Positions 41,533 through 58,768 of a DNA stretch of 64,000 nt are shown in pieces. Under the pieces are notes generated by a model, which was given only the letters and a program-made list of their open reading frames with translations, did no database searches and was not told where the DNA came from. The DNA lies in NCBI GenBank assembly GCA_041742075.1, contig JBGSJJ010000015.1, positions 65,132 to 129,131 of the forward strand, in the 5' to 3' direction. This DNA is from Minisyncoccia bacterium (lineage in GTDB: Bacteria; Patescibacteriota; Minisyncoccia; Phycocordibacterales; UBA918). The position numbers were made by a program, and so were the translations under genes. The stretch's first letter is position 1, and each line of letters begins with the position of its first letter.

Positions 41533-42210
41533 CTACAACGAGTCACGCGTGCGGAAATACTCAATGAGCTCTTCCAGGGTGGCGTGCGGGGTGAACGTCG
41601 CACTATCCCTGTCAGCGTACCTAATCACGCGGTCAAACTCTTCGCGCATGTGAACGTCGATGAGTGTACCTGAGAATGGAGTTCCATTGAGGACACCCTT
41701 CGTCGCAATCATCTGCCAATTGATGGTCGCAAGAGTCCTGGTGTAAACCTTCAATTTTGAACTGGCCCGCTCCAAGCAGAACACCATTTGGAGCATACAT
41801 CGCAGAATGTGATGCGGATAACTCATGATAGTCAAACTTTCCCAGCCATTCTCTTCTGCCAGTTTAATCAGGTTGGCGCTCTCTGTCGCCGTATACTTCG
41901 ACGGCTGGATCATGAGAAAATCTTCGCAACCCAAATCATAGAGTACTCTACCCCATGTACCAGAGCCTGGATACGCTAAACGCTGGCCGTTTGGCCAACA
42001 CTCCGCGTCCGAAAGACCATTAATTACGACACAACCTGTTTCACCTACACGGGACATTTGAACTGCTGTACGCAGAAGTTCGGTGTCAATTTCATCGTTC
42101 GCTGCCGGTGAGCCATGAACGAACACGGCGTCGGTTTTTTCACGCCTATCAAGGAGCACGAGAAGTTGCGCTCGAGCGTAGTTGAGCGGATCAATTGAGT
42201 AAACGGTCAT
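41533..42210 (-). CDS. Hypothetical protein, possibly DUF218/YdcF-like
   Basis: 225 aa. Higher-GC than its neighbours. Loose resemblance to the DUF218 core (AVFVHGSPAANDE). Confidence 0.4.
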   Translation of the reverse strand: MTVYSIDPLNYARAQLLVLLDRREKTDAVFVHGSPAANDEIDTELLRTAVQMSRVGETGCVVINGLSDAECWPNGQRLAYPGSGTWGRVLYDLGCEDFLMIQPSKYTATESANLIKLAEENGWESLTIMSYPHHILRCMLQMVFCLERASSKLKVYTRTLATINWQMIATKGVLNGTPFSGTLIDVHMREEFDRVIRYADRDSATFTPHATLEELIEYFRTRDSL

Positions 42211-42494
42211 CCATTAACCTTTCGTGTTAGTGAACTTCAAGATGGATATCTTTCTCTCTTGATTCATAACACAATATATCAATATAGTCAATTCCTAGTC
42301 ACTACCTACCCAATTCTTAAGAAAGAATTTCTACCTCAAGAATCTGCAACTTTTTAAGTGTCTCGACGATTATAAAAGAGGTGAATCAAAATGATTGCTA
42401 TGTGAGGCTTTCAGTTCGGTACAATATTTGTGTAAACTCTCTTTTCTGTTACAATTTTGATGCAAAAAGTATATTAAAAACTCTAAAATAACCT

Positions 42495-43733
42495 ATGGCA
42501 ACAAAAAAAACTCCACCTGCAAAAAATAAACTACGTGTGCCCTATGGTTTCTCTGTCCATGGCCAAGAAGAAATCGATGCAGTTGTTGAAGTTCTCAAAG
42601 GTAACACCGCACTTGGTGAAAAAACTCAAGTTTTTGAAGAACGAATTGCCAAGATGTTTGGTAAAAAATACGGTGTAATGGTGAACTCTGGTTCGTCAGC
42701 TAACTTGCTCGCTTTTGAACTACTGCAATTACCACCTGGCTCTGAAGTCATTACCCCTATCTTAAGTTTTGCCACGGTGGTTGGTCCGATTGTTCAAAAA
42801 GGACTGACTCCGGTCTTTGTTGATGTTGATCCAGACACCTATAACGTAAATGTAGACGCAGTTGAGAAAGCTATCAGTAAAAAAACTAAGGCGCTCATGA
42901 TTCCTTCACTCATGGGTAACATTCCTGACCTGCCAAGACTCCACACCTTAGCGAAAAAGCACAAACTCGTTTTGATTGAAGACTCTTGCGATACGCTTGG
43001 TGGCACCATCAACAAAAAGCCAACTGGTATGTTTTCGGATATATCTATCACAAGCTTCTATGGTTCTCACATCATCAATGGAGCTGGTGGCGGAGGTATC
43101 ATCATGGTCAACAACCCAGAGTGGGCCAATCGTCTTAAGGTACTTCGTGGTTGGGGGCGCCAGTCTTCCCTGTTTGGTGAAAAGGGTAATTCTGAATTAC
43201 TTAAGAATCGCTTCAATACAAAACTAAATGGCATAGCGTATGATGCCAAGTTTATTTTTAGTTCAATCGGCTACAACTTTTTACCGCTCGAGATTTCTTC
43301 AGCCTTTGCTTTAGCACAACTAAAAAGATTGCCTGGCTTTCTCGCGTTACGCCTGAAGCACTACAATCGACTCTACGAATTCTTTAGTGGTCACCAAGAC
43401 TTCTTTATCCTGCCACGCCAAACCCCGGCTACAACAACTGCTTGGCTGGCGTTCCCACTCATCATCAAACCAAAAGCTCCCTTCACTCGACTAGAATTAG
43501 TTACATTTTTAGAAGAGCAAAACATTCAAACCCGTCCTGTCTTTACCGGCAACATCCTCAAGCAACCAGGTTTTAAGAGGATAGCCCACCGAAAAGCGAC
43601 ACCAACTTTCCCAAACACCGAACTCGTTATGAGAAATGCTTTTGTGGTTGGTTGCCACCAAGGACTCACGGAGGAACAGATTACGTATATGCAAAATTGC
43701 TTTGAAACGTTTTTAGCGAAATACAAAAAGTAA
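42495..43733 (+). CDS. rfbH: DegT/DnrJ/EryC1-family PLP/PMP enzyme with the hallmark of CDP-4-keto-6-deoxy-D-glucose-3-dehydrase (E1, RfbH/DdhC): His in place of the Schiff-base Lys
   Basis: Aspartate-aminotransferase-fold motifs (VNSGSSANLLA, IEDSCDTLGG) are present. The catalytic position reads SITSFYGSHIINGAGGGG, where canonical aminotransferases have SF(H/Y)xxK. Encoded next to ddhA/ddhB. Confidence 0.65.
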   Translation: MATKKTPPAKNKLRVPYGFSVHGQEEIDAVVEVLKGNTALGEKTQVFEERIAKMFGKKYGVMVNSGSSANLLAFELLQLPPGSEVITPILSFATVVGPIVQKGLTPVFVDVDPDTYNVNVDAVEKAISKKTKALMIPSLMGNIPDLPRLHTLAKKHKLVLIEDSCDTLGGTINKKPTGMFSDISITSFYGSHIINGAGGGGIIMVNNPEWANRLKVLRGWGRQSSLFGEKGNSELLKNRFNTKLNGIAYDAKFIFSSIGYNFLPLEISSAFALAQLKRLPGFLALRLKHYNRLYEFFSGHQDFFILPRQTPATTTAWLAFPLIIKPKAPFTRLELVTFLEEQNIQTRPVFTGNILKQPGFKRIAHRKATPTFPNTELVMRNAFVVGCHQGLTEEQITYMQNCFETFLAKYKK

Positions 43734-43743
43734 CATCGCTTCT

Positions 43744-44727
43744 ATGAGCTCTCCAGTTTTAAGTATCTGTATACCGACCTATAATCGGTCCCATTACCTC
43801 AAGCGATGTCTCGATAACATTGTTGAGCATTTTAAACAAAACCCCGAACTTAAAAACATGGTAGAAGTGGTCGTTTCTGATAACTGCAGTACCGATGAGA
43901 CAGGAGTAATTGTCCACTCATTCGCAGAAAAAATACCTCTTTTGGTCTACACGCGAAACCAGGAGAATATTGGGTTTGACCGCAACATCAAAGAAGTTGT
44001 TACTAAAGCCAGTGGCCGGTATTGCTGGTACTTAGGTGACGATGACCTAATTATTCCTGGCGCTTTAAAAGTTGTCTTCGATAAATTTGCTACCAACAAG
44101 TACGATCTCATCACGATGAACTCTCTTCCTTTATGGGATGTGAGTGGTATTATTCCGCCACAAAGCTACACAGAAGAAAGTTTTGTTGAACTTCAAGATC
44201 ATAACGAATTCTATTTTCGTGTCTACTGCCAGGGGGGTGTCAGTGTCCTCGCTTTCTCTCGAGAGCTTTGGCTTCAGCTCGTAACAATGGAAAATTATTT
44301 GGAGCATTGGCTCTACTATGAAAATGTGCTGAAAATTCTTGCGAACTCCAACAAACCAAAAGTATTTGTTGCTACTCCCGTTATTGCCACTGGGCAAGAT
44401 TGTCGCTGGGCTGAGAATGGTACGGAATTATTTACTTTTGTGAACTCTATAGTTTTGTTACAAAGAATGACTAGCTATGGATTTGATAAGGGGCGTATTC
44501 AAAATGATGTAGCTCGAAATAGTAAGTTCCTGATTATTATGGTACTAAGAGCTAAAGGGCATGGACTTGCGTGCAATCGGAAAAATTTTAAGTATATGTA
44601 CACACATATGAAAAAGCTTGTTCCAATTCGGTTACTCATAGCTTCAGCCATTTTTTTTATTCCAAACAAACTCATTGTTTTAGTTCGAGACCTGAGAAAA
44701 ACTCTTTTTAATCTAAAGAAAGCTTAA
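43744..44727 (+). CDS. Glycosyltransferase family 2
   Basis: LSICIPTYNRSHYLKRCLDNI...VVVSDNCSTDETG...YLGDDD (DxD). Confidence 0.8.
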   Translation: MSSPVLSICIPTYNRSHYLKRCLDNIVEHFKQNPELKNMVEVVVSDNCSTDETGVIVHSFAEKIPLLVYTRNQENIGFDRNIKEVVTKASGRYCWYLGDDDLIIPGALKVVFDKFATNKYDLITMNSLPLWDVSGIIPPQSYTEESFVELQDHNEFYFRVYCQGGVSVLAFSRELWLQLVTMENYLEHWLYYENVLKILANSNKPKVFVATPVIATGQDCRWAENGTELFTFVNSIVLLQRMTSYGFDKGRIQNDVARNSKFLIIMVLRAKGHGLACNRKNFKYMYTHMKKLVPIRLLIASAIFFIPNKLIVLVRDLRKTLFNLKKA

Positions 44728-44880
44728 TGGCTAAATATCATTCAGAAGTTTTGTGTATCGAGGGATCTGGCTGGATATAGGCTTTTAAAGCAGTCTGGAT
44801 ATAGATAGGTATTTTGGGATAACTTAAAGAGCTACTATAAACTTACGAAAAACTTTACTAGACCGGCAAGAAAAAAACAT

Positions 44881-45921
44881 ATGCAAAAATTCAACAAAAT
44901 TGTCGTGATGCCAGTACGAAATGAAGAGTGGATACTTGAGAAGACCCTCTCGGTCTTGTCATTATTTGCTGACTACATCATTGTGGCCGATCATAATTCT
45001 ACCGACAGAACAGCCGAAATCTGTAGTAAATTTCCCAAGGTAAGGGTTATAAAAAACGACGCAAAATTTCAGTCGAGCCATATTAGAGGGACGTTACTTG
45101 AAAAAGCGCGAGAGATTGAGGGTAACAACGTCATATTTAGTATCGATGCCGATGAGGTTCCGACAGCAGATATACTAAATGACGAGTTCTGGAAAGAGAT
45201 AGAAAAGATGCCACCTGGTACTGCCATTGAGATGCAGTGGATCAATCTTTGGCGATCATTTACAGAATACCGAGACGACAATTCAGTCTGGGCAAACAGC
45301 TATAAAGTTTTTGGGTTTGTTGATGACCGCCAGTCAAACTTTGTAAGTAAAGCTGGAGACTATGACCATGTATCGAGGGTACCTATTGATGTACTCAAGA
45401 ATATAAAGCGACTTGAAAGTCCTAAGGTCATTCATTTTCAATTTATTGACTGGGAAAAAGTACTCGTGAAGCAGGCTCACTATCGAGTGATTGAATACCT
45501 ACAGAGAAAAAAGGGTTTCATGAATGCTTTTAAAATAAACGTGCGCTATTACTCCTACCGGGAAGACAAAGATGTGAAAACTTCTCCCGTTCCCACTTCC
45601 TGGCTTCATGAGTACGAGCAAAAAGGGCTCGACCTGTGGCATTTCCCAAAAAATAAACTTTCTTGGCTTGATGTTGACACCCTCAAGTTTTTTAAAGAGC
45701 ACAGCCCTCAGCATTTTAGATGGCTTGACGTTTGGGACATAGACTGGGAAACAAAACGACTCCTCGCACTACACGAGGGTATCGATAGTGTCCCTACGGG
45801 TCCTATTATCGATCCTCGGTCATGGTACATACGATACTATCACTCATATGTCCAACAATTTTTTAGTTATAATAGTGTATTGTACAGAGCTTATCGGTAT
45901 AGTATAAAATTTGTTAAATAA
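44881..45921 (+). CDS. Glycosyltransferase family 2-like (Glyco_tranf_2_4-type)
   Basis: IVVMPVRNEEWILEKTLSVL...IIVADHNSTDRT...SIDADE. Confidence 0.55.
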   Translation: MQKFNKIVVMPVRNEEWILEKTLSVLSLFADYIIVADHNSTDRTAEICSKFPKVRVIKNDAKFQSSHIRGTLLEKAREIEGNNVIFSIDADEVPTADILNDEFWKEIEKMPPGTAIEMQWINLWRSFTEYRDDNSVWANSYKVFGFVDDRQSNFVSKAGDYDHVSRVPIDVLKNIKRLESPKVIHFQFIDWEKVLVKQAHYRVIEYLQRKKGFMNAFKINVRYYSYREDKDVKTSPVPTSWLHEYEQKGLDLWHFPKNKLSWLDVDTLKFFKEHSPQHFRWLDVWDIDWETKRLLALHEGIDSVPTGPIIDPRSWYIRYYHSYVQQFFSYNSVLYRAYRYSIKFVK

Positions 45922-45950
45922 TAAGCCTCCAATTAGGCAAGAAACATCAT

Positions 45951-47066
45951 ATGGAAAAAACTAAAAGCTATTGGTTTGGCAAAAGAGTGCTTGTTACAGG
46001 AGGAGACGGTTTCCTGGCAACACACTTAACAAAAACACTCTTAAAAGAAGGTGCGATGGTTACTATTACCGTTCGCCATAAGCGACCATTTACTACGGCT
46101 GAACTACTAACAGACACCGAGGAAAATGTTGGTACTCCCGATATTGAACATTTTGACATTCTTGACTTGACTGCTCTGCGAAGAGTTTGTGAGCGGCACC
46201 AGATAGACACCATATTTCACTTAGCTGCATCCGCTATTGTTTCAGACGCAGCCAATTCCCCATTTTCAACAATGGAAAACAATGTAGTTGGTACACTCAA
46301 TATTCTTGAAGTAGCCCGCATCAATAAAATACCAAGAGTCCTGATTGCCTCTTCAGACAAGTCCTATGGAGACCACTATAAAGATGACAAGGAAGGATTG
46401 CCGTACAGAGAAAGCTATGCGCTTCGAGGACTCGATGTCTATAGTTCTTCTAAGGTGTGTACTGACATGATTACTCAGACTTATTCCTACCAATTTAAAA
46501 TACCCGCGATTATTACCAGAGCCTGCAATATGTATGGCCCAGGAGATTTAAACTTTTCACGTCTCATTCCAAAAACGTCGATGTGCCTTCTTGCTAGCAA
46601 GCCGCCCATGATTAATGAAGGGAGTGCAAACGTTTTGCGAGAATACATTTATGTAGATGATGTAGTTAACGCATACATGTTTCTTATGGAGAATGTTGCT
46701 GACTATTACGGAGAGAATAACGTAAACATGCCTCGGGATGGCAAAACAACGTATGGTTGGGCAGCCTTTAATGTGGGGAGTTATGGAGCTGAAGAAATTA
46801 AGTCTGTTGAAAAATGCGCAAACATAAAGAGTGTTACTGACGTGATAAATCTCCTTCGAACTAAAATCGCAGACGTTGAGCCAACAGTCCAGGGTCGCCC
46901 CGATAATTTTATCGAAATTCCTGATCAATTTCTTGATTCTTCAAAGCTGATTAATTTCGGCTTCAAGACCAAAACCTCGTTTGAAGAGGGTCTCGGTAAA
47001 ACAGTAGACTGGTACGCAAAAAATTATGCAGTGCTCGAGAATATGGCTTTCAAGTATACCAAATAA
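45951..47066 (+). CDS. NAD-dependent epimerase/dehydratase (extended SDR), putative NDP-4-keto-sugar reductase/epimerase
   Basis: FGKRVLVTGGDGFLATHL, YSSSKVCTD (YxxxK). Confidence 0.7.
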   Translation: MEKTKSYWFGKRVLVTGGDGFLATHLTKTLLKEGAMVTITVRHKRPFTTAELLTDTEENVGTPDIEHFDILDLTALRRVCERHQIDTIFHLAASAIVSDAANSPFSTMENNVVGTLNILEVARINKIPRVLIASSDKSYGDHYKDDKEGLPYRESYALRGLDVYSSSKVCTDMITQTYSYQFKIPAIITRACNMYGPGDLNFSRLIPKTSMCLLASKPPMINEGSANVLREYIYVDDVVNAYMFLMENVADYYGENNVNMPRDGKTTYGWAAFNVGSYGAEEIKSVEKCANIKSVTDVINLLRTKIADVEPTVQGRPDNFIEIPDQFLDSSKLINFGFKTKTSFEEGLGKTVDWYAKNYAVLENMAFKYTK

Positions 47067-47099
47067 TATTGCAGACGTTAACTATAGTGTAAAAAACTC

Positions 47100-48002
47100 A
47101 TGAAAATTATTATTACTAGTCTCATTAGTCTAACCAATAAATTTTTAAAGAATAAAAAAATATTTCTTTATACTCCAAACAAGCATAATGGTTTTGGAAA
47201 GACTGCTGTTAAAACAAAATTTGGTTTTTGGTATGTAGGAGATATCCTCGATCAAAGAGATATCGCTTGTGGTATTTTACGATATGGTGAAATCGAACCC
47301 GAAGAGACTGCACTCACTATAAAGATTTTTAAGTACCTAAATCAAAAAGCTAACCCAGTTATCTATGACATCGGAGCCAATACTGGGTACTACGGATTAT
47401 TGGCTGCTCATTTTTTTGAGAAACAAGTTTCAGTGTATTCTTTTGAGCCAGTCAAAGAGTTTGCCGACTGTATCGACGAAACAGCAAAGATAAATGGTTT
47501 CAGTGACTGCATTCATGTCTGCAATTTTGCACTCAGTGACAAGAATGGAACTGGTGAAATATATGTATGGGGAACCTGTTCAAGTCTCGATAAAGACTTT
47601 AATAATAAAGACCTGCCGACACAAACTATCGAACTTAAAAGGCTTGACGGTTTTGCAGAAAGTGTTTCTCCAGACTTTATAAAAATAGACACGGAAGGCC
47701 ATGAACTACTTACACTCGAAGGGGCTATTGAAACTATTTCAAAAAGTAAGCCTCTGCTATTTGTTGAAATCATAGAAAGACTCAAAATGAGAAATTTTGT
47801 CAATCAAGATTACTCGAAAACAATTCAGCTTTTACTAAACATTGGGTACGAAGCCTATCTTTTCAAAAACGGTAAACTAGAGAAGACCGATGGTAGCCTA
47901 ACAATTGAAGGCGTGTATATGTACTTATTCATACATAAAGACAAGCATAAAGATTTTCTGAAATACTTAAATGTGTCTGACGAGAAAATATCTTCTAACT
48001 AA
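47100..48002 (+). CDS. FkbM-family methyltransferase
   Basis: IYDIGANTGYYGL...YSFEP...IKIDTEGHELLTLEGA. Confidence 0.7.
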   Translation: MKIIITSLISLTNKFLKNKKIFLYTPNKHNGFGKTAVKTKFGFWYVGDILDQRDIACGILRYGEIEPEETALTIKIFKYLNQKANPVIYDIGANTGYYGLLAAHFFEKQVSVYSFEPVKEFADCIDETAKINGFSDCIHVCNFALSDKNGTGEIYVWGTCSSLDKDFNNKDLPTQTIELKRLDGFAESVSPDFIKIDTEGHELLTLEGAIETISKSKPLLFVEIIERLKMRNFVNQDYSKTIQLLLNIGYEAYLFKNGKLEKTDGSLTIEGVYMYLFIHKDKHKDFLKYLNVSDEKISSN

Positions 48003-48013
48003 ATTTTAAATGT

Positions 48014-48949
48014 ATGACCTCTGAACTACTACACAAAAACATCAAGCTAGTTCGTGCGGTAATACCTTTATCACTTCGTCGCTTAGTAGGACCATATATT
48101 GCGTATAGTGCATATATATGGAGAGTGTATATAACCAAAAATAAAAATGCCCCAAAAATTCTTTCACTTGAAGAAACAATTGACATTATTATAGCTAATG
48201 AACTTTCAGCAATTCGTTTTGGTGATGGTGAAATGTCCCTTATTGAAAATGAACAACTTAATTTTCAGCAAACAAACAGTCAATTGTCTTACAAACTAAG
48301 AGCAATCCTGCAGATACATACACCCGCGTTACTCATCTGCATTCCCGGCATTTGGGGAAAGTTAAACGGTTACACCAAAGTTTCGTACTGGTTTATTTTG
48401 CATCACCTATTCCGCCACGGTCATGTTTGGAGAGGTCTGTTATCAAGTAACCAAACCTATGGTGACGCTTATATCACAAGACCATATCTAGGTTATAAAG
48501 ATAAATCGCATAGTGGTAGTATTTTTAAAAAGTTGTTCTCAATATGGGCAGGAAAAAAAGTTGTCCTCATTGAAGGTAAAAAAAGTCGGCTCGGTGTAGG
48601 TAATGATATGTTTAACAATGTGCAAAGTCTGAAACGAATCCTCTGTCCAGCGGAAAATGCCTATACAAAATATGCTGAAATAATGACGGAAGCCTTGAAG
48701 ATACCGAAGGATTCATTAGTGTTACTTTCGGTAGGTCCGACTGCAAAAGTATTAGCCTATGACTTGTTCATGGCCGGATACAGAGTGATTGATATTGGGC
48801 ACATCGACATGGAATACGAAATGTTCTTGCGGTCTTCCTCCACCCTTGTTAAAGTGCCGTATAAGTATTTTAATGAAATAAATGAACTCAATCCGCAAGA
48901 CTGTCTTGATGATACCTACCTGTCCCAGATTATTGCAAAAGTAGTATAA
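48014..48949 (+). CDS. Putative GT-D-fold glycosyltransferase (DUF1792-like)
   Basis: SAIRFGDGEMSLIE motif and ~310 aa size. Confidence 0.45.
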   Translation: MTSELLHKNIKLVRAVIPLSLRRLVGPYIAYSAYIWRVYITKNKNAPKILSLEETIDIIIANELSAIRFGDGEMSLIENEQLNFQQTNSQLSYKLRAILQIHTPALLICIPGIWGKLNGYTKVSYWFILHHLFRHGHVWRGLLSSNQTYGDAYITRPYLGYKDKSHSGSIFKKLFSIWAGKKVVLIEGKKSRLGVGNDMFNNVQSLKRILCPAENAYTKYAEIMTEALKIPKDSLVLLSVGPTAKVLAYDLFMAGYRVIDIGHIDMEYEMFLRSSSTLVKVPYKYFNEINELNPQDCLDDTYLSQIIAKVV

Positions 48950-48962
48950 TACGAGTCTGACC

Positions 48963-50018
48963 GTGAAAAAAATCCGCGTAAAATTTTTAAAGTTTGGCAG
49001 TGCTGACCATACGACACCAGGATCATATGCTAATCTTTTTTATTCTCTCCTTCAAAAAAAGTACGAAGTCGAGATATCAGAAACGCCTGATTATATTTTC
49101 TACCATGAATCATCTGATGAACACTTGAACTATAATTGCGTAAAAATTTTCTATACCGGTGAAAATGTCTCACCAAATTTTAACTTTTGTGATTACGCCA
49201 TTGGTTTTGATTGGCTTGATTTTAGTGACCGTTACTATCGTTTTCCAATCTATCTAAATGCTATCTACTATCGACCAGAAGAAATAACTCAATCCGCAAA
49301 TATAGACTGGACAAAACCTGCCAACCTTACTCGTGCTGATATGGAAGCAAAAACGGAATTTTGTAGCTTTGTCTACTCTAACTATCGTGGCGAACTGGCC
49401 CGTCAGTCTTTATTTGATGCACTTAGTGTTTACAAAAAAGTGAACGCCGGCGGTGCGTATCTCAATAACGTTGGTGGGCGCGTAGAGAACAAACTGGCTT
49501 TTGAAGCTAAACATAAGTTTTCGATTGCTTGTGAAAATTCATCACGCTCAGGCTATACAACTGAAAAAATCATTGGTTCTTTTTTAGCTAAAACTATCCC
49601 TATCTATTGGGGCGACCCAGACGTCGCCAAGCAGTTTAACCCAAAGCGGTTTATTAATTGTCATGACTTTAAAAGTTTTGACGAGGTACGTACCCGAGTA
49701 GCCGAAATAGATGAAGATGATGACCTCTACCTGAGTATGGTAAATGAACCAATAACGATCCCTGAGTACAACTTTACAAAAGTTCATGAGGGCCTTGAAG
49801 CTTTTCTTCAACATATTTTTGACCAGCCTGTTACAGACGCTAAGCGAGCGACCATTAACCCAAATCGACTCGCAGAAATGGAAAAACGAGAACATGTGGC
49901 CAGTTGGTATACCGGCGCTCAATTAAAACTCATCCAAGTCAGTGCTAAAATCTACCAACCTCTTAAAAAGTTTCCTTGGTTTGAGAAACTAAAACATACA
50001 CTTTTTCAAAGTAAGTAG
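48963..50018 (+). CDS. Alpha-1,3(/4)-fucosyltransferase, glycosyltransferase family 10. GTG start.
   Basis: KFSIACENSSRSGYTTEKIIGSFLAKTIPIYWG matches the GT10 signature motif (FxxxFENSxxxxYxTEK). The GDP-fucose genes are in the same locus. Confidence 0.7.
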   Translation: MKKIRVKFLKFGSADHTTPGSYANLFYSLLQKKYEVEISETPDYIFYHESSDEHLNYNCVKIFYTGENVSPNFNFCDYAIGFDWLDFSDRYYRFPIYLNAIYYRPEEITQSANIDWTKPANLTRADMEAKTEFCSFVYSNYRGELARQSLFDALSVYKKVNAGGAYLNNVGGRVENKLAFEAKHKFSIACENSSRSGYTTEKIIGSFLAKTIPIYWGDPDVAKQFNPKRFINCHDFKSFDEVRTRVAEIDEDDDLYLSMVNEPITIPEYNFTKVHEGLEAFLQHIFDQPVTDAKRATINPNRLAEMEKREHVASWYTGAQLKLIQVSAKIYQPLKKFPWFEKLKHTLFQSK

Positions 50019-50025
50019 GGTTACT

Positions 50026-51039
50026 ATGCTCAACATCATCTCTCGCTCTATAGTCTCTCGCCACACTCGTGGGCCACGAAAAGTGGTACTGAATCTAATC
50101 AAAGGCCTTGATGAACTTAACGTGCCCTATGTCGTGAACGCCTCACTTGATGCCACCAGTGAGCTCTGGATACACGATGACCCCTTAGCCCTTAAAGCCT
50201 CTCTTACCTTACCTCCTACTACGAGCATTATTGCCGGACCGAATATTTACACTCTCCCCTCAGAGATTCCACCTGAAATGAATTTAAGTCGACTACTCTG
50301 GCTCTATCCCGCGCCCTGGGTAGAAAAGTTTTGGCACGCATTTGGAGGAAGTCATATCCCTAGTGCGGTGTGGCCGGTTGGTATCGATACCGCGAAGTTT
50401 TCTCCAAGCACGCGCGAGAAGAGGCTTGTCTTAGTCTATAACAAACAGCGCTCTTTAAAAGACACTCTAGCCGTCACCACCCTACTTGAAACACTCGGGC
50501 AAACGTATCACGTCATCACCTACGGCAACTACCAAGAGCGTGAGTACCAGACTCTCCTCAGTGAGGCAAAGGCTGTTATTTGGATTGGTCGTTCAGAGAG
50601 TCAGGGAGTTGGCTTACTTGAAGCCCTCGCCATGAACGTCCCGATGCTCGTCTGGGGCGTCACCCGCTTTGGTGACTGGGTTGGCTCAGGGCATGACCAC
50701 TTCACCCCAAGCCAACTCGCGTACACGCCAGTTATGACCGCACCGTATTTTAATGAACGGTGTGGAGTCTGTATCTCAAGTAACGAAGAGCTACCAAATG
50801 CTCTACCTCCCTTCCTGAGCAATTTAGCGCAATATACGCCACGTGCGTACGTGGAGGCAGAGCTTAGCCTCAAGCGAGGAGCGGAGACATTTTTAGCTCT
50901 CTATACCAACCATTTTGGTGTCCTACCCGAAACAATGCGGACCAAGCACCTCATAAACACCAAAAAGTGGCACAACGCCACCCTCCGTTTCCAACTCAAA
51001 AGCCAGATAAAAGATGCGTTGCGACGGATAATACGTTAA
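50026..51039 (+). CDS. GT-B-fold glycosyltransferase (GT4/GT1-like)
   Basis: RSESQGVGLLEALAMNVPMLVWG matches the E-x7-E nucleotide-sugar-binding region. Confidence 0.55.
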   Translation: MLNIISRSIVSRHTRGPRKVVLNLIKGLDELNVPYVVNASLDATSELWIHDDPLALKASLTLPPTTSIIAGPNIYTLPSEIPPEMNLSRLLWLYPAPWVEKFWHAFGGSHIPSAVWPVGIDTAKFSPSTREKRLVLVYNKQRSLKDTLAVTTLLETLGQTYHVITYGNYQEREYQTLLSEAKAVIWIGRSESQGVGLLEALAMNVPMLVWGVTRFGDWVGSGHDHFTPSQLAYTPVMTAPYFNERCGVCISSNEELPNALPPFLSNLAQYTPRAYVEAELSLKRGAETFLALYTNHFGVLPETMRTKHLINTKKWHNATLRFQLKSQIKDALRRIIR

Positions 51040-51040
51040 A

Positions 51041-51958
51041 ATGTTCGCTATGAATCGGGCAGAGCTCATCGCTACTATATGGAATGCTACGCCTGATATC
51101 GACATGGCTATTGGTCGCAATGCCCGCTTTAAGAAGCACCCTCTTAAAGCGCTCTACTTCTATACCCTGGTTGCCCTCAACCGCTTTACGCCACTCCTCC
51201 TCCCTATCAAAGCCCGCACTCTCTGGGGACACCGTCTCTTTGCCTACGAAACCTCAGCGATTGGCTCGATGTCCTTCCTAGGCTTTTATGACCGCGAGAT
51301 TACCCTCTTTCTCTTAAAACACTTTAATGAACCGGGCGACATCCTAGACGTCGGCGCCAACATCGGCGTCTACACCAGTTTGTTTACGCAAATTGCCCAT
51401 CAGGATGCTAAAATTATCGCCTTTGAACCGACCCCTAGTACCTACTCTGTCCTCTTTAAGAACGTTGGCACCTTACCCCAGGTAGAGACTAAGCAACTCG
51501 CTTTAAGTGACCACGCCGGTACCATCACCTTCTTTGACTATGGGTTGCGTCACGGCGTCTTTAATTCCACTACCGACCAGCCGCTCGATTTTTTACACGG
51601 GCAGGGTAAAAAAATCGATGTGCCAACTACCACGCTGGACTCTTGGTGCATGGAAAATAATATCCACCCGAGTCTCTTAAAGCTCGATACCGAAGGGACT
51701 GAAGCGAGTATCTTAGCTCACAGTAGTCAGGTTCTTTCGGCTGACAAACCCGTCATTCTCTTAGAAGTGGGTGGTGGTGACGCCTGGAGTAAGAACAACA
51801 ATGACAGTCTCGATATCCTTACCTCGTACCAGTACCAGTTCTTTACAGTGAGTGATGCTGGTGAGCTCGTCGTGCATGCACGTCAAGCCAGTTACCAGTA
51901 CACCAACCTTGTCTGTATCCCCGCTAGCAAAGTGAGTTTGTATGTTCAGTCTACTTAA
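51041..51958 (+). CDS. FkbM-family methyltransferase (second copy)
   Basis: ILDVGANIGVYTSLF...IAFEPTP...LKLDTEGTEASIL. Confidence 0.7.
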   Translation: MFAMNRAELIATIWNATPDIDMAIGRNARFKKHPLKALYFYTLVALNRFTPLLLPIKARTLWGHRLFAYETSAIGSMSFLGFYDREITLFLLKHFNEPGDILDVGANIGVYTSLFTQIAHQDAKIIAFEPTPSTYSVLFKNVGTLPQVETKQLALSDHAGTITFFDYGLRHGVFNSTTDQPLDFLHGQGKKIDVPTTTLDSWCMENNIHPSLLKLDTEGTEASILAHSSQVLSADKPVILLEVGGGDAWSKNNNDSLDILTSYQYQFFTVSDAGELVVHARQASYQYTNLVCIPASKVSLYVQST

Positions 51959-52694
51959 AAAAATTCGGCGAGTGCTCTTAACGGCGCTTTATAGTCCGTT
52001 TATTCTAAAGGATTACTTGGCTTTTATACGCCAGGATAACAATCCTCGGTTTACCTACTCCTGGCGGACCTTCTACCCGCAGATTTTTGATAAAACCAAA
52101 CTAACTGGTTTTGATCGACACTATGTCTATCACACCGCTTGGGCAGCCCGCGTGGTAAAAGAAATCAACCCACCGCTTCATACTGACATCGCTTCAAGCT
52201 TATACTTTCCCGCCCTCGTCTCCGCGTTTGTACCCGTCGCTTTTTATGACTATCGCCCGGCCGAACTTGGGTTATCTAACCTCACGAGTAACCATGCTGA
52301 CCTCACGAAGCTCCAGTTTGAGACGGGGAGCGTTACTTCCCTGTCTTGCCTTCACACGATTGAACACGTCGGACTCGGTCGCTATGGCGACCCGGTTGAT
52401 CCAAGTGGCGACGTCAAAGCTTGTAGTGAACTCGCGCGTGTCCTCGCTCCCGGTGGGTCACTCTTGTTTGTGACACCGGTTGGGAAAACGGCCCAGATTA
52501 TGTTTAATGCTCATCGTATTTATACGTATGAACTCGTGCTTTCGCTCTTCCCTGACTTGATCCTTCATGAGTTCTCACTCATTCCCGAGCAGGCCGAGCA
52601 TGGTGGCTTGATTCGAAATGCCGACCCAATACTGATAGAAAATGAAGTGTATGGGTGCGGATGTTTTTGGTTTAAGAAACCAGCCTCAGTATGA
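51942..52694 (+). CDS. Putative SAM-dependent methyltransferase (DUF268-like)
   Basis: LSCLHTIEHVGLGRYGDPVDPSGD...LAPGGSLLFVTP. Confidence 0.4.
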   Translation: MFSLLKKIRRVLLTALYSPFILKDYLAFIRQDNNPRFTYSWRTFYPQIFDKTKLTGFDRHYVYHTAWAARVVKEINPPLHTDIASSLYFPALVSAFVPVAFYDYRPAELGLSNLTSNHADLTKLQFETGSVTSLSCLHTIEHVGLGRYGDPVDPSGDVKACSELARVLAPGGSLLFVTPVGKTAQIMFNAHRIYTYELVLSLFPDLILHEFSLIPEQAEHGGLIRNADPILIENEVYGCGCFWFKKPASV

Positions 52695-53560
52695 TTATCG
52701 TAAACCTCAAAGGAGGCTTAGGAAACCAGATGTTTCAATACGCGCTTGGTCGCACGTTGGCACTTAAACATAACGACACACTTAAGCTCGATATCAGTAC
52801 ACTCTCCCGCGCTCATGAACTTGGGGTGGTGTATCGTCCCTTTAGCCTACAGTCTTTCAATGTCATACAGAACATCGCTACCAGAGATGAAATCAATCAC
52901 CTTGCCTATCCGTACGGCCTACTTTCAAAACTTACTCGGACAATTTCTGCTCGCGTTTTAAAACGTACCCACGTTTGTTTTGAACCCACCATTCTCAACC
53001 TGACTGGGGACCAGTACCTTGATGGGTATTGGCAAAGCCCACGTTTTTTTGAAGACATCCGCGGCACTCTGATAACTGAGTTTACGCTACGGACGCCCCT
53101 GCCTGAGACAGGTGAATTCTACAAGCAAGCTTTGACACAAGATGGGTCAGTCAGTCTGCACGTACGCCGTGGTGACTACGCCACTAACCCCAAAACAACT
53201 GGGGAGATGGGGGTATGCTCACTTGAGTATTACAAAATAGCTATTGAGCACATACGTACAGTGGTCGATACGCCCCGCTTTTTTGTTTTTTCAGACGATA
53301 TCGCCTGGGCCAGAGAACATCTCCTCCTTGAAGAGTCCGAGGTTATCTTTGTATCTGATGCGTCGCTCACTGACGCTATGGAACTAGCACTGATGAGCTT
53401 GGCCAAGCACAATATAATAGCCAATAGTAGCTTTAGCTGGTGGTCAGCCTGGCTTAACCAAAACCCAAGCAAAGTTGTGATAGCGCCTACTCCTTGGTTT
53501 AATACAGTACGGTTCGATACTCACCTACTACCAGAATCATGGATACAACTACCCAAGTAA
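52691..53560 (+). CDS. Alpha-1,2-fucosyltransferase, glycosyltransferase family 11
   Basis: MIIVNLKGGLGNQMFQYALGRTLA is the hallmark GT11 N-terminus (GGLGNQ[ML]FQYA). ...HVRRGDY is motif I. Confidence 0.8.
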   Translation: MIIVNLKGGLGNQMFQYALGRTLALKHNDTLKLDISTLSRAHELGVVYRPFSLQSFNVIQNIATRDEINHLAYPYGLLSKLTRTISARVLKRTHVCFEPTILNLTGDQYLDGYWQSPRFFEDIRGTLITEFTLRTPLPETGEFYKQALTQDGSVSLHVRRGDYATNPKTTGEMGVCSLEYYKIAIEHIRTVVDTPRFFVFSDDIAWAREHLLLEESEVIFVSDASLTDAMELALMSLAKHNIIANSSFSWWSAWLNQNPSKVVIAPTPWFNTVRFDTHLLPESWIQLPK

Positions 53561-54315
53561 CAAGTGCTCCTAAAGTAAGCATCCTCATGCTTACCTATAA
53601 CCGTGCTTCGTATATAAAAGAGGCGATACAAAGTGTGCTTAAGCAAACCTACCCAGACTTCGAACTCCACATCATCGATGATGGCTCGACAGACGCGACT
53701 GCGGAGCTCGTAGTAAAGTTCACGGACTCGCGCGTAAAGTACCACAGAAGTAGCACTAATAAAGGTCTGATTGAAAGACGTAAAGAAAGTCTCACCTACG
53801 CCAACGGCATGTACATTGCCATACTCGATAGCGACGACGCTTGGAATGACCCGGGCAAGCTCCAGGCTCAAGTGGCGTATATGGAAGCCAATCCAGATTG
53901 TGCGGTCGTTGGTACCTTCATCAACCGTATTAACCAGGCGGGTGAAACAATTGGCACCGACAAGTATGCTGAAAGTGACAGCACTATCCGTAAAACCATT
54001 CTGGTCCGGAATCAATTCGCCCATTCAAGCGTGCTACTGCGCACAGCTTTTGTAGAAAAAACTGCTGGCTACCGTGACACTACCCTCGCTGAAGACCTTG
54101 ATTTGTTTTTACAACTTGGACAGGTCGGCACATTCGCCAATCTACCAGTCTACACAACCAACTATCGCATCCACGGCGAGAGTTTTGGCTCTAAGCGCGT
54201 ACTGATGGCAAAAGCTATCTTGCATATTATCAAGAACTACCGAGATACCTACCCCAATGCCTGGAAAGGATTGCTCGTTGGCTACCTAAGACTCCTTCTA
54301 TCGTATGTACGTTAA
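53539..54315 (+). CDS. Glycosyltransferase family 2
   Basis: VSILMLTYNRASYIKEAIQSVLKQTYPDFELHIIDDGSTD...ILDSDD. Confidence 0.8.
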   Translation: MDTTTQVTSAPKVSILMLTYNRASYIKEAIQSVLKQTYPDFELHIIDDGSTDATAELVVKFTDSRVKYHRSSTNKGLIERRKESLTYANGMYIAILDSDDAWNDPGKLQAQVAYMEANPDCAVVGTFINRINQAGETIGTDKYAESDSTIRKTILVRNQFAHSSVLLRTAFVEKTAGYRDTTLAEDLDLFLQLGQVGTFANLPVYTTNYRIHGESFGSKRVLMAKAILHIIKNYRDTYPNAWKGLLVGYLRLLLSYVR

Positions 54316-54324: not shown

Positions 54325-54350
54325 GAACGCCCACTCAAGAGTGGGCGTTC
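54325..54350. terminator. Bidirectional terminator hairpin (11-12-bp perfect stem) between convergent genes
   Basis: gaacgcccactc aa gagtgggcgttc. Lies after the last gene of the 12-gene + strand operon and after the minus-strand small gene. Confidence 0.5.
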
Positions 54351-55297: not shown

Positions 55298-56245
55298 TTA
55301 TAAACCGTATACTGCTACCGTGCTTTCCACCATGTCGGTCAAAGTCCGTTTTGGTTCCCAACCAAGAATTTCTTTTGCTCTCTCAGCGTTCGCTACAACA
55401 GTGGCCACATCACCGGCCCGACGAGGTACTACCGTTATCTCAATTTTTCTACCGATAGCTTTTTCAAAGGCTGCCACGAGTTCAAAGACTGAATAGCCTA
55501 CCCCAGTACCAAGATTAATCGTACACGCACCTTCGGTGTTTGTTGCCTGCCCGTGAGCTTCTGCTAAGTCAGACAGGTGGATATAGTCTCGTACCCCACT
55601 ACCGTCTTTTGTCTCATAATCATCTCCAAAGACCTGAAAACTTTTACCGCCCTTGATTGAGCGAGCAATCAGTGGGAATACGTTCTGGGCGGACTCTTCT
55701 TTGTACCCAAGCCCACTATCACCAGCTACGTTAAAGTAACGCAAGATAGCATGGGACGAAATCTTACCAGTTCGGGTAAATTCACGAATCAACGTTTCAG
55801 ACATAAGCTTAGACTGTCCGTACACATTTTTTGGGTCAACTGGAGATGTTTCAGTTGCCTGCCCCTCTATAGGTGCATACACTGAGGCGGTTGAAGAGAA
55901 AATAATCTGCGGTACCGTATAGCGCGCCATAGCCGATAAGACATTCAGTGTGCCCAGGACATTATTTTTGAAGTAGAGAGCCGGTTCTTGCTCACTTTCG
56001 CCGACGGCTTTTTTTGCCGCTAAGTGGATAACGGTGTCAAATTGGTACTGACTGAAAACCTCGTCAACGGCTGTTTCGTTAGTCACGTCACCAACTATAA
56101 GGGACGCGCCACGAGTGACCTTATCTTCCTGTCCAGCGGTTAAGTCATCAAACACGACAACCGTGTTCCCTGCTTCGACGAGAGTTTTTACACATGCCGA
56201 ACCAATATACCCGGCTCCGCCCGTTACCAATATTTTTTTAGACAT
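55298..56245 (-). CDS. galE: UDP-glucose 4-epimerase
   Basis: MSKKILVTGGAGYIGSACVKTLVEAGNTVVVFDDL, YGQSKLMSE (YxxxK). Confidence 0.85.
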   Translation of the reverse strand: MSKKILVTGGAGYIGSACVKTLVEAGNTVVVFDDLTAGQEDKVTRGASLIVGDVTNETAVDEVFSQYQFDTVIHLAAKKAVGESEQEPALYFKNNVLGTLNVLSAMARYTVPQIIFSSTASVYAPIEGQATETSPVDPKNVYGQSKLMSETLIREFTRTGKISSHAILRYFNVAGDSGLGYKEESAQNVFPLIARSIKGGKSFQVFGDDYETKDGSGVRDYIHLSDLAEAHGQATNTEGACTINLGTGVGYSVFELVAAFEKAIGRKIEITVVPRRAGDVATVVANAERAKEILGWEPKRTLTDMVESTVAVYGL

Positions 56246-56310: not shown

Positions 56311-57648
56311 TTATGAGGCTTTAAGGGGTGCCAAACTAAGGGCACTTTCAATGGCATCTCGATACGCCACCTTAAACACTTCTGGGTCTTCATGAAGACG
56401 ATCTTTTATCGTCGTGCGAGCGTTGTGGGCAAACTGCACCCGGGTACCATTATTATTTAGAAACTTGGAGAGTTTCTGTGAAAATTCAATCGTGTCGTCT
56501 TTATCGCATAAAAACGCATTTTCTTCATCTGTAAAAACGTCATTTCGAAGGTCAGTCCGCGCCGCCAAAATAGGCAGACCAACCGCAGCTGCCTTAATCA
56601 CAATTTCTTCACTTTCTGGAGTTACGTCGGTACAGACAAGTAAATTGGCCGAGCGCATATACGAGATCACATCTACACTAGCCGGTTCAAAAATAAGCTG
56701 TTCGTTTATTCCAAAAATATTAGCCCGATTTTGGAACTCTTTTTTCATCGGTCCATCACCGATGACTACAAGTGCAATGGCTGGTGAGCGTAGTATAGTC
56801 CGTGAGGCGTCAATCGCTCTGAAAAGAGTACTGTCATGGTTAAGTGTCCCGACAAAGAGCGCAATGAATTTAAAGCGCGCTAACTTTGCTGGCTTAACTG
56901 TTTGCTCTCTGGTTTCTGAAAGAATCGCTTTAATGTTGTAGTACCGTGGCAGTAGCAACGGTTCTTTTAAGTGAGCAAAATTTTTCTTCACTTTCTCTTT
57001 AATACTTTGCGAAGTAACACAAATACTCTCCGTTTGCTTAAGTACATGTCGTGACAACCGTAAGAGCATTTTGGCATGGGGTCGAGAGTACAAAAATGAC
57101 TCGGAAAATATATCTTCTAACAGATGCACTTGAAACGGTCGCTGATACTTCTCTGATAACTTTAAGCCGATGTACCCAGCCTCAAAAGGATCAAGTGCCA
57201 CAATAATGTCCGGACGGAACCCATCAGTGAACTCGAGTTGTTTTTTCATCAGCTCTTCCGCAACGGTGAGCATTTGCCACCAATGACTGGCGGTTGCGCC
57301 ATAGACAAAGACTCGATCAGCAATTTTATCGGTTAAAAAACGAGGTTTCCCCGCGCACTCTATCACCGCTATGTGTATCTCTTCAAACACGGCGTTAAGG
57401 GAGGCTAGTTTCTCTAAAAGCTCAGTTTGCGGGGCGAGCAAATTAACGTCAGTGGAAATAAACAAGACTCTTGATTTTGTTCGTCCAGTAGTTAAAGGTA
57501 GTGCTGGCCCTTGGCCCACTTGGGCAGTGTTAGTCAGCCCACTACGCAAGGTCTCGAGGGTACTATCCTCATTTAACACGTACTCCAAAATGTTTTCAGA
57601 TCGCGGAGCCGGACTAAATGTCTCTGGTTCACGCATAACATTGACCAT
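56311..57648 (-). CDS. GT-B-fold glycosyltransferase (GT4-like)
   Basis: C-terminal ...LLVCTDVTPESEEIVIKAAAVGLPILAA... is an EX7E-type region. 445 aa. Confidence 0.55.
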   Translation of the reverse strand: MVNVMREPETFSPAPRSENILEYVLNEDSTLETLRSGLTNTAQVGQGPALPLTTGRTKSRVLFISTDVNLLAPQTELLEKLASLNAVFEEIHIAVIECAGKPRFLTDKIADRVFVYGATASHWWQMLTVAEELMKKQLEFTDGFRPDIIVALDPFEAGYIGLKLSEKYQRPFQVHLLEDIFSESFLYSRPHAKMLLRLSRHVLKQTESICVTSQSIKEKVKKNFAHLKEPLLLPRYYNIKAILSETREQTVKPAKLARFKFIALFVGTLNHDSTLFRAIDASRTILRSPAIALVVIGDGPMKKEFQNRANIFGINEQLIFEPASVDVISYMRSANLLVCTDVTPESEEIVIKAAAVGLPILAARTDLRNDVFTDEENAFLCDKDDTIEFSQKLSKFLNNNGTRVQFAHNARTTIKDRLHEDPEVFKVAYRDAIESALSLAPLKAS

Positions 57649-57724: not shown

Positions 57725-58768
57725 CTACGCTCCACCCTGCACGATGTTCATAATAAACGCCGCCAGTTTGTTTGAGTCATGGCGAAGCAAGCTCCGTTTT
57801 AACTGATCACTGGGACCAGAGACTGTCACCACATCAGACAATAAGTCTCCGGTTAAAACTGGCACCGGTAAAACCGCTGTATCGTCAATTAGGGGTGTGT
57901 CCCCTTCTTCAAGATAGTGTTCGAGTATATCGGCTCGAAGTGGAGCACTATTTTTGAGCACCACATCAGGCATGCGAGTTGTATAGCGAGCGATTTCCCG
58001 CACGTGATCATTAATAGTCATGCCTCGGGTTTGTCCTGGTCTCGTCATAAGGTTGGCGACATAGACAATTTTTGCTTTTGATTGAGCAAAGGCCTCTGGC
58101 ACTCCCTGAATAACGCAATTAGCTAAGATACTTGAATACAAGTCTCCCGGTCCCAATACAATACAATCGGCCTCAACAATAGCTTCAAAAGCCTCGTCGT
58201 TGATTATTCCTACCGGACTCGTAAAGAGTGACGTAATCCGTCTATGCGCATACGCTGGCGGTGGAGCATCAATATTTGTCTCACCAATGACGGTAGTACG
58301 ATCATCGTACTCGGCCACCAGGTTTAGATTGTCCGCAGTAACGGGTATTACTGACCCTCGAATATTTAAAATATGGGATGCAACTTTTGTCGCTTCAATT
58401 TCGCTCCCTAAAATATCTGTCAGCGCCGTTAAAAATAAGTTTCCAAAATTATGCCCCGACAAACCTTCACCTTTGGCAAAGCGGTACATAAAAAGTTGGC
58501 GGACGATTTCTTCGTGATCGTCGTCATCACTGGCGAGCGCCACCAGAGCCATCCGCACGTCACCCACGGGCAAATACCCAAACTCATCTCGCAGTCGTCC
58601 GGTTGACCCGCCTGAGTCGGCCATGGTGACGACCGCTTTTATATCGAGACTACTGTGAAATTGCTTGAGTCCACGCAAAACAGTGTGGGTACCTGTCCCG
58701 CCTCCAATTACCACTATTTTCTTTTTTGTGGGCTTACGTAAGCGTTTCGTAGCCGTATGTTCATCCAT
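57725..58768 (-). CDS. YvcK/CofD-family protein (UPF0052; gluconeogenesis-factor / cell-envelope homeostasis family)
   Basis: KIVVIGGGTGTHTVLRGLK...AVVTMADSGGSTGRLRDEFGYLPVGDVRMAL. Confidence 0.8.
   Translation of the reverse strand: MDEHTATKRLRKPTKKKIVVIGGGTGTHTVLRGLKQFHSSLDIKAVVTMADSGGSTGRLRDEFGYLPVGDVRMALVALASDDDDHEEIVRQLFMYRFAKGEGLSGHNFGNLFLTALTDILGSEIEATKVASHILNIRGSVIPVTADNLNLVAEYDDRTTVIGETNIDAPPPAYAHRRITSLFTSPVGIINDEAFEAIVEADCIVLGPGDLYSSILANCVIQGVPEAFAQSKAKIVYVANLMTRPGQTRGMTINDHVREIARYTTRMPDVVLKNSAPLRADILEHYLEEGDTPLIDDTAVLPVPVLTGDLLSDVVTVSGPSDQLKRSLLRHDSNKLAAFIMNIVQGGA

Follow-up and report, generated by a model that had tools for sequence, protein, structure and literature searches.

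Which glycan would be made by a bacterium that encodes two fucosyltransferases of different families, several methyltransferases and a flippase in one locus? This question is raised by a 64-kb stretch of contig JBGSJJ010000015.1 (the whole stretch is called the window below, and positions count from its first letter), in which a GT10 and a GT11 fucosyltransferase gene lie in one operon. An original prediction made from the letters had considered a di-fucosylated, methylated, Lewis-antigen-like glycan plausible. We analysed the window together with about 165 related loci, and families were called with Pfam and NCBIfam profiles against their curated cutoffs (Pfam E-values 1e-13 to 1e-31). The reading that we favour, with a probability of roughly 0.55, is a single surface-glycan pathway, in which both fucosyltransferases and the methyltransferases would act on a lipid-linked unit that is exported by Wzx.

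The genes in question are the last eight, i.e. the 3' two-thirds, of a 12-gene co-directional operon at 42495..54315 (+ strand), whose gaps range from -22 to +33 bp with a single exception of 153 bp, and no strong + strand terminator was found inside it. Its order is RfbH-like pyridoxal-phosphate (PLP) enzyme, GT2, GT2, short-chain dehydrogenase/reductase (SDR) dehydratase, FkbM1, GT-D, GT10, GT4-like, FkbM2, DUF268, GT11, GT2. The eight genes and the hairpin behind them are as follows.

47100..48002, + strand: FkbM-family methyltransferase 1 (FkbM1), inside the low-GC block (PF05050 61.5 bits; TIGR01444 86.8 bits)
48014..48949, + strand: GT-D (DUF1792/SP_1767) glycosyltransferase, the GT10 partner (PF08759 279.7 bits)
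48963..50018, + strand: GT10 fucosyltransferase of the alpha-1,3 or alpha-1,3/4 type (PF18025 and PF00852)
50026..51039, + strand: divergent GT4-like (retaining GT-B) glycosyltransferase, the first normal-GC gene (Pfam Glycos_transf_1 weak only)
51041..51958, + strand: FkbM-family methyltransferase 2 (FkbM2; PF05050 60.3 bits; TIGR01444 100.9 bits)
51942..52694, + strand: DUF268-family class-I S-adenosylmethionine (SAM) methyltransferase (PF03269 51.5 bits against a cutoff of 25, and Methyltransf_11)
52691..53560, + strand: GT11 alpha-1,2-fucosyltransferase (PF01531 110.1 bits against 23.9)
53539..54315, + strand: GT2 glycosyltransferase, the conserved downstream partner of GT11 (PF00535 110.7 bits)
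54325..54350, no strand: terminator-like hairpin with a perfect 11-bp stem and a 4-nt loop, between convergent genes (GAACGCCCACTCTTGAGTGGGCGTTC)

All open reading frames (ORFs) named in the original prediction were present at their coordinates, uninterrupted and spanning 98-100% of their homologs, and three genes that it had missed were added, namely the GT-D, the GT4-like and the last GT2 gene. The hairpin reads GAACGCCCACTC TTGA GTGGGCGTTC, lies 10 bp past the stop of the final operon gene, and is probably a bidirectional terminator. The closest homologs of GT10, GT11 and DUF268 came nearly all from metagenome-assembled genomes of the Patescibacteria/Paceibacteria type, and the host, as judged from its genes, is probably a Paceibacteria-like bacterium of the Patescibacteria (Candidate Phyla Radiation, CPR). 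The best GT10 match among GTDB species representatives was 69%. The genes are additional members of already known families, and NCBI automatic annotation already labels close homologs as GT10, alpha-1,2-fucosyltransferase and 'DUF268 domain-containing protein'.

The presence of both fucosyltransferases was borne out by Pfam scores above cutoffs and by the recovery of both peptides on which the prediction relied. GT10 has two domains, the N-terminal FucT_N (PF18025, 102.9 bits against a cutoff of 27.2) and the C-terminal catalytic domain (PF00852, 65.2 against 23.9), and contains the peptide FSIACENSSRSGYTTEKI. It matched the fucosyltransferase of Helicobacter pylori (HpFucT, PDB 2NZW) at E 6.9e-49 in two stretches, with both domains aligned and 44% identity across 220 aligned residues. 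The motif-level alignment with H. pylori GT10, which had been named as the check, revealed no loss of catalytic residues, as all six residues compared were identical: E95, R195, N240, Y246, E249 and K250 of HpFucT correspond to E67, R147, N192, Y198, E201 and K202 of GT10. The last five of these are taken to be GDP-fucose-binding. When 31 GT10 homologs were aligned, all six were invariant or conservatively replaced; E67 and R147 were invariant, and E201/K202 changed to D/R only. Glu95 of HpFucT is treated as an active-site residue (PMC6785251).

GT11 contains the peptide GGLGNQMFQYA, and its motifs GGxGNQ (8-13), HxRRGDY (157-163), SDD (201-203) and NSSFSWW (245-251) were invariant or nearly so in an alignment of 27 homologs. 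G8, G9, G11, N12, Q13, H157, R159, R160, D162, Y163, N245, S246, F248, W250 and W251 were invariant, and G161 and S249 were kept in at least 90%. We take GGLGNQ, HxRRGD(Y) and the C-terminal S/T-FSWW-AWL to be functional motifs of this family. Comparison of GT11 with PDB by sequence matched no solved structure. On these alignments, GT10 and GT11 both look catalytically competent. For the GT4-like enzyme, a profile of 30 orthologs matched BshA (2JJM/3MBO) at E 5e-4 across the EX7E region, with E191 and E199 invariant among the orthologs; its single-sequence AlphaFold model had a mean confidence (pLDDT) of 38.

Methyltransferases are interleaved with these genes, as had been predicted: two FkbM enzymes, each well above its cutoffs (TIGR01444 37.7; PF05050 22.7), the DUF268 protein, and a Methyltransf_24 enzyme further upstream. 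The DUF268 stop overlaps the GT11 start as ATGA. All 34 aligned homologs of the window DUF268 protein matched PF03269, and its AF2 model (pLDDT 88) has the Rossmann fold of a class-I SAM methyltransferase, with the sugar O-methyltransferases RebM and AtmM and the Nod-factor N-methyltransferase NodS among the top matches.

Sugar donors, a flippase and a candidate polymerase are encoded in the same window.

19155..21434, - strand: Wzy_C and tetratricopeptide-repeat (TPR) membrane protein of 759 aa (PF04932 68.4 bits against 31.7; about 11 hydrophobic segments; C-terminal TPR)
23584..24675, + strand: gmd, GDP-mannose 4,6-dehydratase, the first GDP-L-fucose step (TIGR01472 580 bits against 415; PF16363 504)
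26833..27792, + strand: fcl, GDP-L-fucose synthase (NF047922), with a GC content at third codon positions (GC3) of 0.51, the last normal-GC gene before the low-GC block
27789..50018, no strand: low-GC variable block of 22 kb and 21 genes (gene GC3 mostly 0.26-0.43, flanks 0.47-0.57)
31861..32520, + strand: Methyltransf_24 class-I SAM methyltransferase (PF13578 58.3 bits)
32527..33825, + strand: Wzx-type flippase for lipid-linked oligosaccharide (PF01943 100.5 bits; at least 9 hydrophobic segments)
55298..56245, - strand: GalE, UDP-glucose 4-epimerase (UDP-Gal), a right-flank anchor (TIGR01179 327.5 bits against 262.3), syntenic in relatives L001 and L167

Since Gmd, Fcl and GalE all scored above their equivalog cutoffs, the supply of GDP-L-fucose and UDP-Gal is encoded in the window. 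The GDP-fucose genes had been placed some 20 kb upstream in the same locus, and gmd and fcl indeed sit 21-25 kb upstream of GT10; in several relatives they stand beside GT10 or beside DUF268-GT11. The Wzy_C/TPR protein could be a polymerase, a ligase or an O-oligosaccharyltransferase, as far as its domains tell, and it stands 21 kb from the operon. No clear transmembrane segments were seen in the glycosyltransferases of the locus, and so cytoplasmic assembly fits. Taken from gmd (23.6 kb) to a conserved GT4 gene (57.6 kb), this is a Wzx-type surface-glycan locus of about 34 kb with the operon inside it.

The pathway that we propose would run as follows. Gmd and Fcl would supply GDP-L-fucose and GalE UDP-Gal, and seven soluble cytoplasmic glycosyltransferases (two GT2, GT-D, GT10, GT4-like, GT11, GT2) would build an oligosaccharide on a lipid carrier. 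GT10 may attach alpha-1,3- or alpha-1,4-fucose in a sugar context made by its fixed partner GT-D, and GT11 may attach alpha-1,2-fucose to a residue, probably beta-Gal, from its fixed partner GT2. O-methylation by DUF268 and the FkbM enzymes would follow, and the likeliest target of DUF268 would be the fucose added by GT11 or a position beside it. The unit would be flipped by Wzx, and the Wzy_C/TPR protein would polymerise it or ligate it to a surface acceptor. The exchangeable low-GC outer block (GT-D, GT10, nucleotide-sugar pathways) would yield strain-specific glycans, while the inner module would stay anchored. What we infer in this scheme is which donors and acceptors are used, what is methylated, the passage over a lipid carrier and the final acceptor, and the product would probably serve in cell-cell or phage recognition.

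The GT-D enzyme bears on a different route to the surface. It passed the family cutoff of TIGR03728 (306 bits against 290.75) and matched PDB 5V4A and 4PHR over its full length at E 2e-55, with the FGDGEM stretch kept in comparison with 5V4A; DXE is presumably the metal-binding motif of this family. The likeness to the streptococcal enzymes of the serine-rich repeat (SRR) systems (dGT1, GalT1; PDB 4PHR, 5V4A) is thus a full-length one; the characterised members transfer glucose onto a Glc-GlcNAc glycan (PMC5063993). Every GT-D enzyme characterised so far extends O-glycans of SRR adhesins (PMC5063993), the window GT-D matches them strongly, one of the window genes encodes a giant secreted protein rich in Thr, Gly and Ser, and an initiating phosphoglycosyl transferase was not found in the window. 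The glycan might be built in the cytoplasm directly on a secreted Ser/Thr-rich protein (O-glycosylation), possibly the 2768-aa protein at 1313-9619, with no lipid or Wzx route. We consider this improbable, because a Wzx gene lies inside the locus and, in 28/46 CPR GT10 loci, upstream of GT-D and GT10 on the same strand, a Wzy_C protein is nearby, neither a GtfA/GtfB-type initiating pair nor an accessory Sec system was identified, and the giant protein is at least 33 kb from the operon. In contrast to its streptococcal counterparts, the window GT-D is stand-alone, fixed upstream of GT10, and placed in a Wzx locus, not in an accessory-Sec/SRR-protein locus. The giant protein (- strand) has an N-terminal hydrophobic segment, 14% Thr, 13.5% Gly and 10% Ser, and had no Pfam match; we read it as a giant surface protein that could conceivably be a glycosylation target.

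Comparison with relatives showed how the genes are combined. A scan of species-representative genomes for GT10 yielded 80 loci, and 46 CPR loci with GT10 were compared. GT-D stood immediately upstream of GT10 in 35/44 CPR loci; downstream of GT10 came GT11 in 23/36 (same strand) and DUF268 in 18/36. The Bacteroidales/Clostridia GT10 loci (n = 36) had no GT-D, no DUF268 and a single weak match to GT11. The order GT-D, GT10, GT4-like, optional FkbM, DUF268, GT11, GT2 was seen in L001, L003 and L004 (GT10 58-69% identical), and the joint order recurred in at least 16 other species-level genomes, so that the GT10 and GT11 pairing is a recurrent configuration rather than a peculiarity of this genome. 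Among the relatives that bear the cassette, L007 is a complete Wolfebacteria chromosome of 984 kb. A GT-D and GT10 pairing was not found in the literature searched.

As the first set was seeded on GT10, 80 metagenome loci seeded on DUF268 were fetched as well. GT11 was present in 25/26 of those with adequate flanks and was the very next gene in 35/59, and GT10 lay upstream in only 4/31. In the three GT11-seeded loci (L165, L166 and L167, the closest GT11 relatives of the window), GT-D and GT10 were absent, and a methyltransferase, FkbM or DUF268, overlapped the GT11 start in each. GT2 adjoined GT11 in 18/36 of the GT10-seeded loci, lay within 3 kb of it in 25/38 of the DUF268-seeded loci, and was present in all three GT11-seeded loci. 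The right flank of the latter is as in the window: GT2, an epimerase (2/3), a 285-290-aa gene, GT4, CofD, a PKD protein (with LTD in 2/3) and a TrwB-like ATPase. The corresponding window genes, which appear in the order GT4, CofD, LTD/PKD protein, TrwB-like ATPase in L001, L004, L165, L166 and L167 too, are listed here.

56311..57648, - strand: GT4 glycosyltransferase, a conserved anchor (PF00534 72 bits)
57725..58768, - strand: CofD-like protein, a right-flank chromosomal anchor
58829..60277, - strand: LTD/PKD-domain protein, a right-flank chromosomal anchor
60290..62332, - strand: TrwB/VirD4-like ATPase, a right-flank chromosomal anchor

Since the DUF268- and GT11-seeded loci mostly have no GT10 and the GT11 module lies beside these conserved genes, the locus is made of two modules, a chromosomally anchored methyltransferase-GT11-GT2 module and a GT-D-GT10 module in the variable part.

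Base composition separates the same two parts. GC3 was 0.31 in FkbM1, 0.35 in GT-D and 0.34 in GT10, and 0.53, 0.57, 0.50, 0.47 and 0.51 in the next five genes. The AT-rich setting of GT10 and the GC-normal setting of GT11 that had been described thus hold, with a step from 0.34 to 0.53 at the 7-bp gap between 50018 and 50026. The low-GC block, which includes Wzx, a CDP-sugar branch, two GT2 genes, FkbM1, GT-D and GT10, has sharp edges on both sides, located at gene junctions, and no repeats, tRNA genes or mobile-element scars were found at its boundaries. GC3 also rose at the GT10/GT4-like junction in the nearest relatives (L001 0.30 to 0.36, L004 0.30 to 0.43, L003 0.32 to 0.39), and the step is confined to the window and these relatives. 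Pairwise-identity matrices were compared across 17 genomes with the full cassette: GT-D correlated with GT10 (rho 0.47, p 0.004), GT10 with DUF268 (rho 0.41) and DUF268 with GT11 (rho 0.33), and no correlation was detected between GT10 and GT11 (rho 0.12, p 0.18).

From the two compositions, the original prediction had concluded that the two fucosylation steps were probably acquired independently. Its support is the contrast between a low-GC variable block and a conserved anchor by CofD, together with the uncorrelated GT10 and GT11 matrices; against it stand the joint order in at least 16 genomes and the same GC step in the nearest relatives. Separate histories of the two modules are therefore retained, and two separate insertions in this genome are not: since the joint configuration is recurrent and ordered, recombination within a shared operon frame fits better. 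Such recombination is known behaviour of O-antigen and capsule loci. Window FkbM1 and GT-D were nearest to L003 (71%, 67%), but window GT10 was nearest to L001 and L004 (69%, 67%), which places a breakpoint inside the module. GT-D and FkbM1, closest to L003, were the only clearly discordant genes. A recent lateral exchange with L001, considered because of a left-block identity of 73-84%, was rejected as weak, as family baselines differ and L001/L004 were closest for nearly every gene.

The same separability raises the possibility of two products, in which the anchor genes would make a lineage-wide methyl-fucose glycoconjugate and the low-GC block a separate strain-specific polymer, so that the two fucoses would never meet. 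The modules can be found apart, with GT11- and DUF268-seeded loci mostly without GT-D and GT10, the GT10 and GT11 identity matrices are uncorrelated, and the composition changes between the modules. However, the gap between GT10 and the gene after it is just 7 bp and contains no terminator, a single Wzx was seen in the window, and at least 16 genomes keep the joint order; we regard two products as unlikely.

Several observations weigh against a single lipid-linked pathway. It is operon membership alone that suggests both fucoses on one glycan, which is what we infer, and no experimental glycan data for this lineage were found in the literature searched. The substrates of the characterised GT-D enzymes are O-glycans attached to serine-rich adhesin proteins, not lipid-linked units (PMC5063993). 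Among the ORFs of at least 150 aa in the window, no initiating phosphoglycosyl transferase (Bac_transf, Glycos_transf_4; WbaP/WecA type) was detected, and one may lie elsewhere in the genome; no chain-length regulator (Wzz) was found among the ORFs scanned in the window. The Pfam match of DUF268 spans about 60 core residues (profile positions 68-126 of 176), and the PDB neighbours of its model were generic, with TM scores of about 0.5 and 11-17% identity. As a general feature of CPR loci, the GC step between GT10 and GT11 had to be rejected (mean change in GC3 +0.02, Wilcoxon p 0.14). Finally, the Fcl score is barely above the equivalog cutoff (505.9 bits against 500), and a related GDP-6-deoxyhexose donor is possible.

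This narrow Fcl score, together with the further unusual deoxy sugars that the locus makes, is what would favour a product that is not di-fucosylated, with one or both fucosyltransferases using another GDP-sugar (e.g. a 3,6-dideoxyhexose or other 6-deoxyhexose) or with GT10 fucosylating protein. Some GT11 homologs reportedly transfer colitose. The human GT10 members FUT10 and FUT11 are described as protein O-fucosyltransferases (PMC11949838). But the presumed donor-binding residues of HpFucT are identical in GT10, gmd and fcl adjoin GT10 or GT11 in many relatives, and the window's other route to deoxy sugars uses CDP- and not GDP-linked intermediates; of the alternatives considered here, we rate this one as the least probable.

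We then return to the Lewis-antigen-like glycan of the original prediction, i.e. a methylated Lewis b/y-like epitope with both fucosyltransferases acting on one Gal-GlcNAc (N-acetyllactosamine, LacNAc) unit, in mimicry as in H. pylori. H. pylori carries Lewis antigens on the O-chain of its lipopolysaccharide (LPS), with a GT25 beta-1,4-galactosyltransferase and a beta-1,3-N-acetylglucosaminyltransferase making the backbone, and its fut genes are dispersed, poly-C phase-variable and equipped with C-terminal heptad repeats. The window shares with it the two CAZy families, FutA/FutB (GT10) and FutC (GT11), the HxRRGDY and C-terminal motifs of GT11, and GDP-fucose as the likely donor; the parallel holds at family level only. 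What speaks for such an epitope is that GT10 and GT11 are both intact in one operon, that GalE provides UDP-Gal, that GT10 has the above identity to HpFucT, and that GT2 enzymes can be beta-Gal or beta-GlcNAc transferases. The three GT2, the GT-D and the GT4-like enzymes may or may not include a LacNAc-forming substitute.

Unlike H. pylori, the window has its genes in one operon with fixed partner glycosyltransferases, interleaved methyltransferases and no recognisable LacNAc synthase; GT25 (PF01755, Glyco_transf_25) had no match in any ORF scanned in the window. Neither tandem nor heptad repeats were found in GT10 or GT11, nor C or G runs of 7 or more in the operon, so that heptad repeats and homopolymer phase-variation tracts are both missing. 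As GT10 and GT11 sit in separable modules with a separate fixed partner each (GT-D for GT10, GT2 for GT11), two different acceptor contexts are suggested, and methylation would destroy or mask Lewis epitopes. To our knowledge, no LPS is known from CPR bacteria, and an animal host that could be mimicked is not evident. For want of an identifiable LacNAc-forming enzyme and of the H. pylori hallmarks, and in a CPR host, the Lewis reading is not supported, and we regard it as highly improbable.

On the single-pathway reading, the locus resembles the Wzx/Wzy loci for O-antigens and capsules. GT11 and GT2 pairs are known from such loci, e.g. from those of the H-antigen-like O-units of E. coli O86 and O128. 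Likenesses are the low-GC variable block between conserved flanks and the combination of nucleotide-sugar genes, Wzx, glycosyltransferases and an alpha-1,2-fucosyltransferase beside a GT2. The window differs from them by having no WecA/WbaP-type initiator or Wzz, a sole Wzy candidate 21 kb upstream of the operon, unusually many methyltransferases and a reduced-genome CPR host. CPR/Patescibacteria are abundant, mostly uncultured episymbionts whose surface chemistry is essentially unknown. No paper on a CPR fucosyltransferase or on CPR fucosylation was found in the literature searched, and a paper on Saccharibacteria calls their glycosylation 'unexplored' (PMC11623550). The results indicate that a lineage with a complete-genome relative of 984 kb maintains a large glycan pathway of modular build, with heavy methylation and fucosylation. 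Given its O-antigen/capsule-like architecture, with a conserved anchor and an exchangeable low-GC block, the locus may plausibly govern attachment to hosts and susceptibility to phages.

Two enzyme pairings can be tested, GT-D with GT10 and DUF268 with GT11, and the second is the most useful lead, as a route to the function of DUF268 with a bearing on the nematode fucose methyltransferase. Because DUF268 is nearly always beside GT11 in the bacterial loci, a role as a fucose-associated glycan O-methyltransferase is a testable hypothesis. No characterised DUF268 member was found in the literature searched, which also gave no support for NoeI as an FkbM-type fucose 2-O-methyltransferase, a possible precedent. 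In C. elegans, DUF268 genes cluster with homologs of the GT11 gene fut-2 and with methyltransferases, and the fucose-modifying methyltransferase 'remains to be identified' (PMC7614267). The Caenorhabditis proteins belong to the same Pfam family (PF03269) as the window protein, the bacterial match covering about 60 core residues; they differ in being described as Golgi type-II membrane proteins, and both the nematode and the bacterial members are known from sequence. In its boldest form the idea would be that DUF268 proteins are glycan O-methyltransferases and obligate GT11 partners that methylate the newly added fucose or the galactose acceptor, that the triad makes a 'methyl-fucose cap' of CPR, and that the nematode DUF268 proteins are the missing fucose methyltransferases; we put this forward tentatively, as possible although rather doubtful when taken as a whole.

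Further methyltransferases were noted in the relatives. The variable regions left of GT11 in L165, L166 and L167 hold 3-5 methyltransferases per 8 kb (FkbM, Methyltransf_11/23/25), and genes for a polysaccharide deacetylase, a carbamoyltransferase and an Asn-synthase-like protein occur there too. In general, these CPR glycans appear to be heavily decorated with non-carbohydrate groups.

Inside the low-GC block, a CDP-sugar branch extends over 34708-43733 with genes on both strands. It also includes DJ-1/PfpI, HAD phosphatase and SDR genes, and its main members are these.

36879..38687, - strand: acetolactate-synthase-like thiamine-pyrophosphate (TPP) enzyme
39512..40282, - strand: nucleotidyltransferase
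40279..41412, - strand: CDP-glucose 4,6-dehydratase (TIGR02622 445 against 278)
42495..43733, + strand: RfbH/E1-like PLP enzyme (353 bits, below the cutoff of 423)

A TPP enzyme beside a 3,6-dideoxyhexose pathway is reminiscent of the YerE-type branched-sugar (yersiniose) route. Neither Pfam matches nor transmembrane segments were seen in five ORFs of 225-394 aa within the glycan locus, at 27789-28973 (+), 33830-34693 (+), 38692-39459 (-), 41533-42210 (-) and 25431-26195 (-). The longest, of 394 aa (27789-28973), shares 4 nt with the end of fcl, and its GC3 of 0.26 is the minimum of the locus; ORF 41533-42210 has a GC3 of 0.55, which is anomalously high within the low-GC block.

The 285-290-aa gene is conserved beside GT4 in the relatives (L166 9631-10503, L165 10703-11560, L167 10591-11448, L001 16677-17549, L004 11762-12634) and had no Pfam match. 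No remnant of it was detected in the window by tblastn. Two orphan ORFs, 54372-54833 (-) and 54892-55254 (+), fill the corresponding spot between GT2 and GalE (54316-55297).

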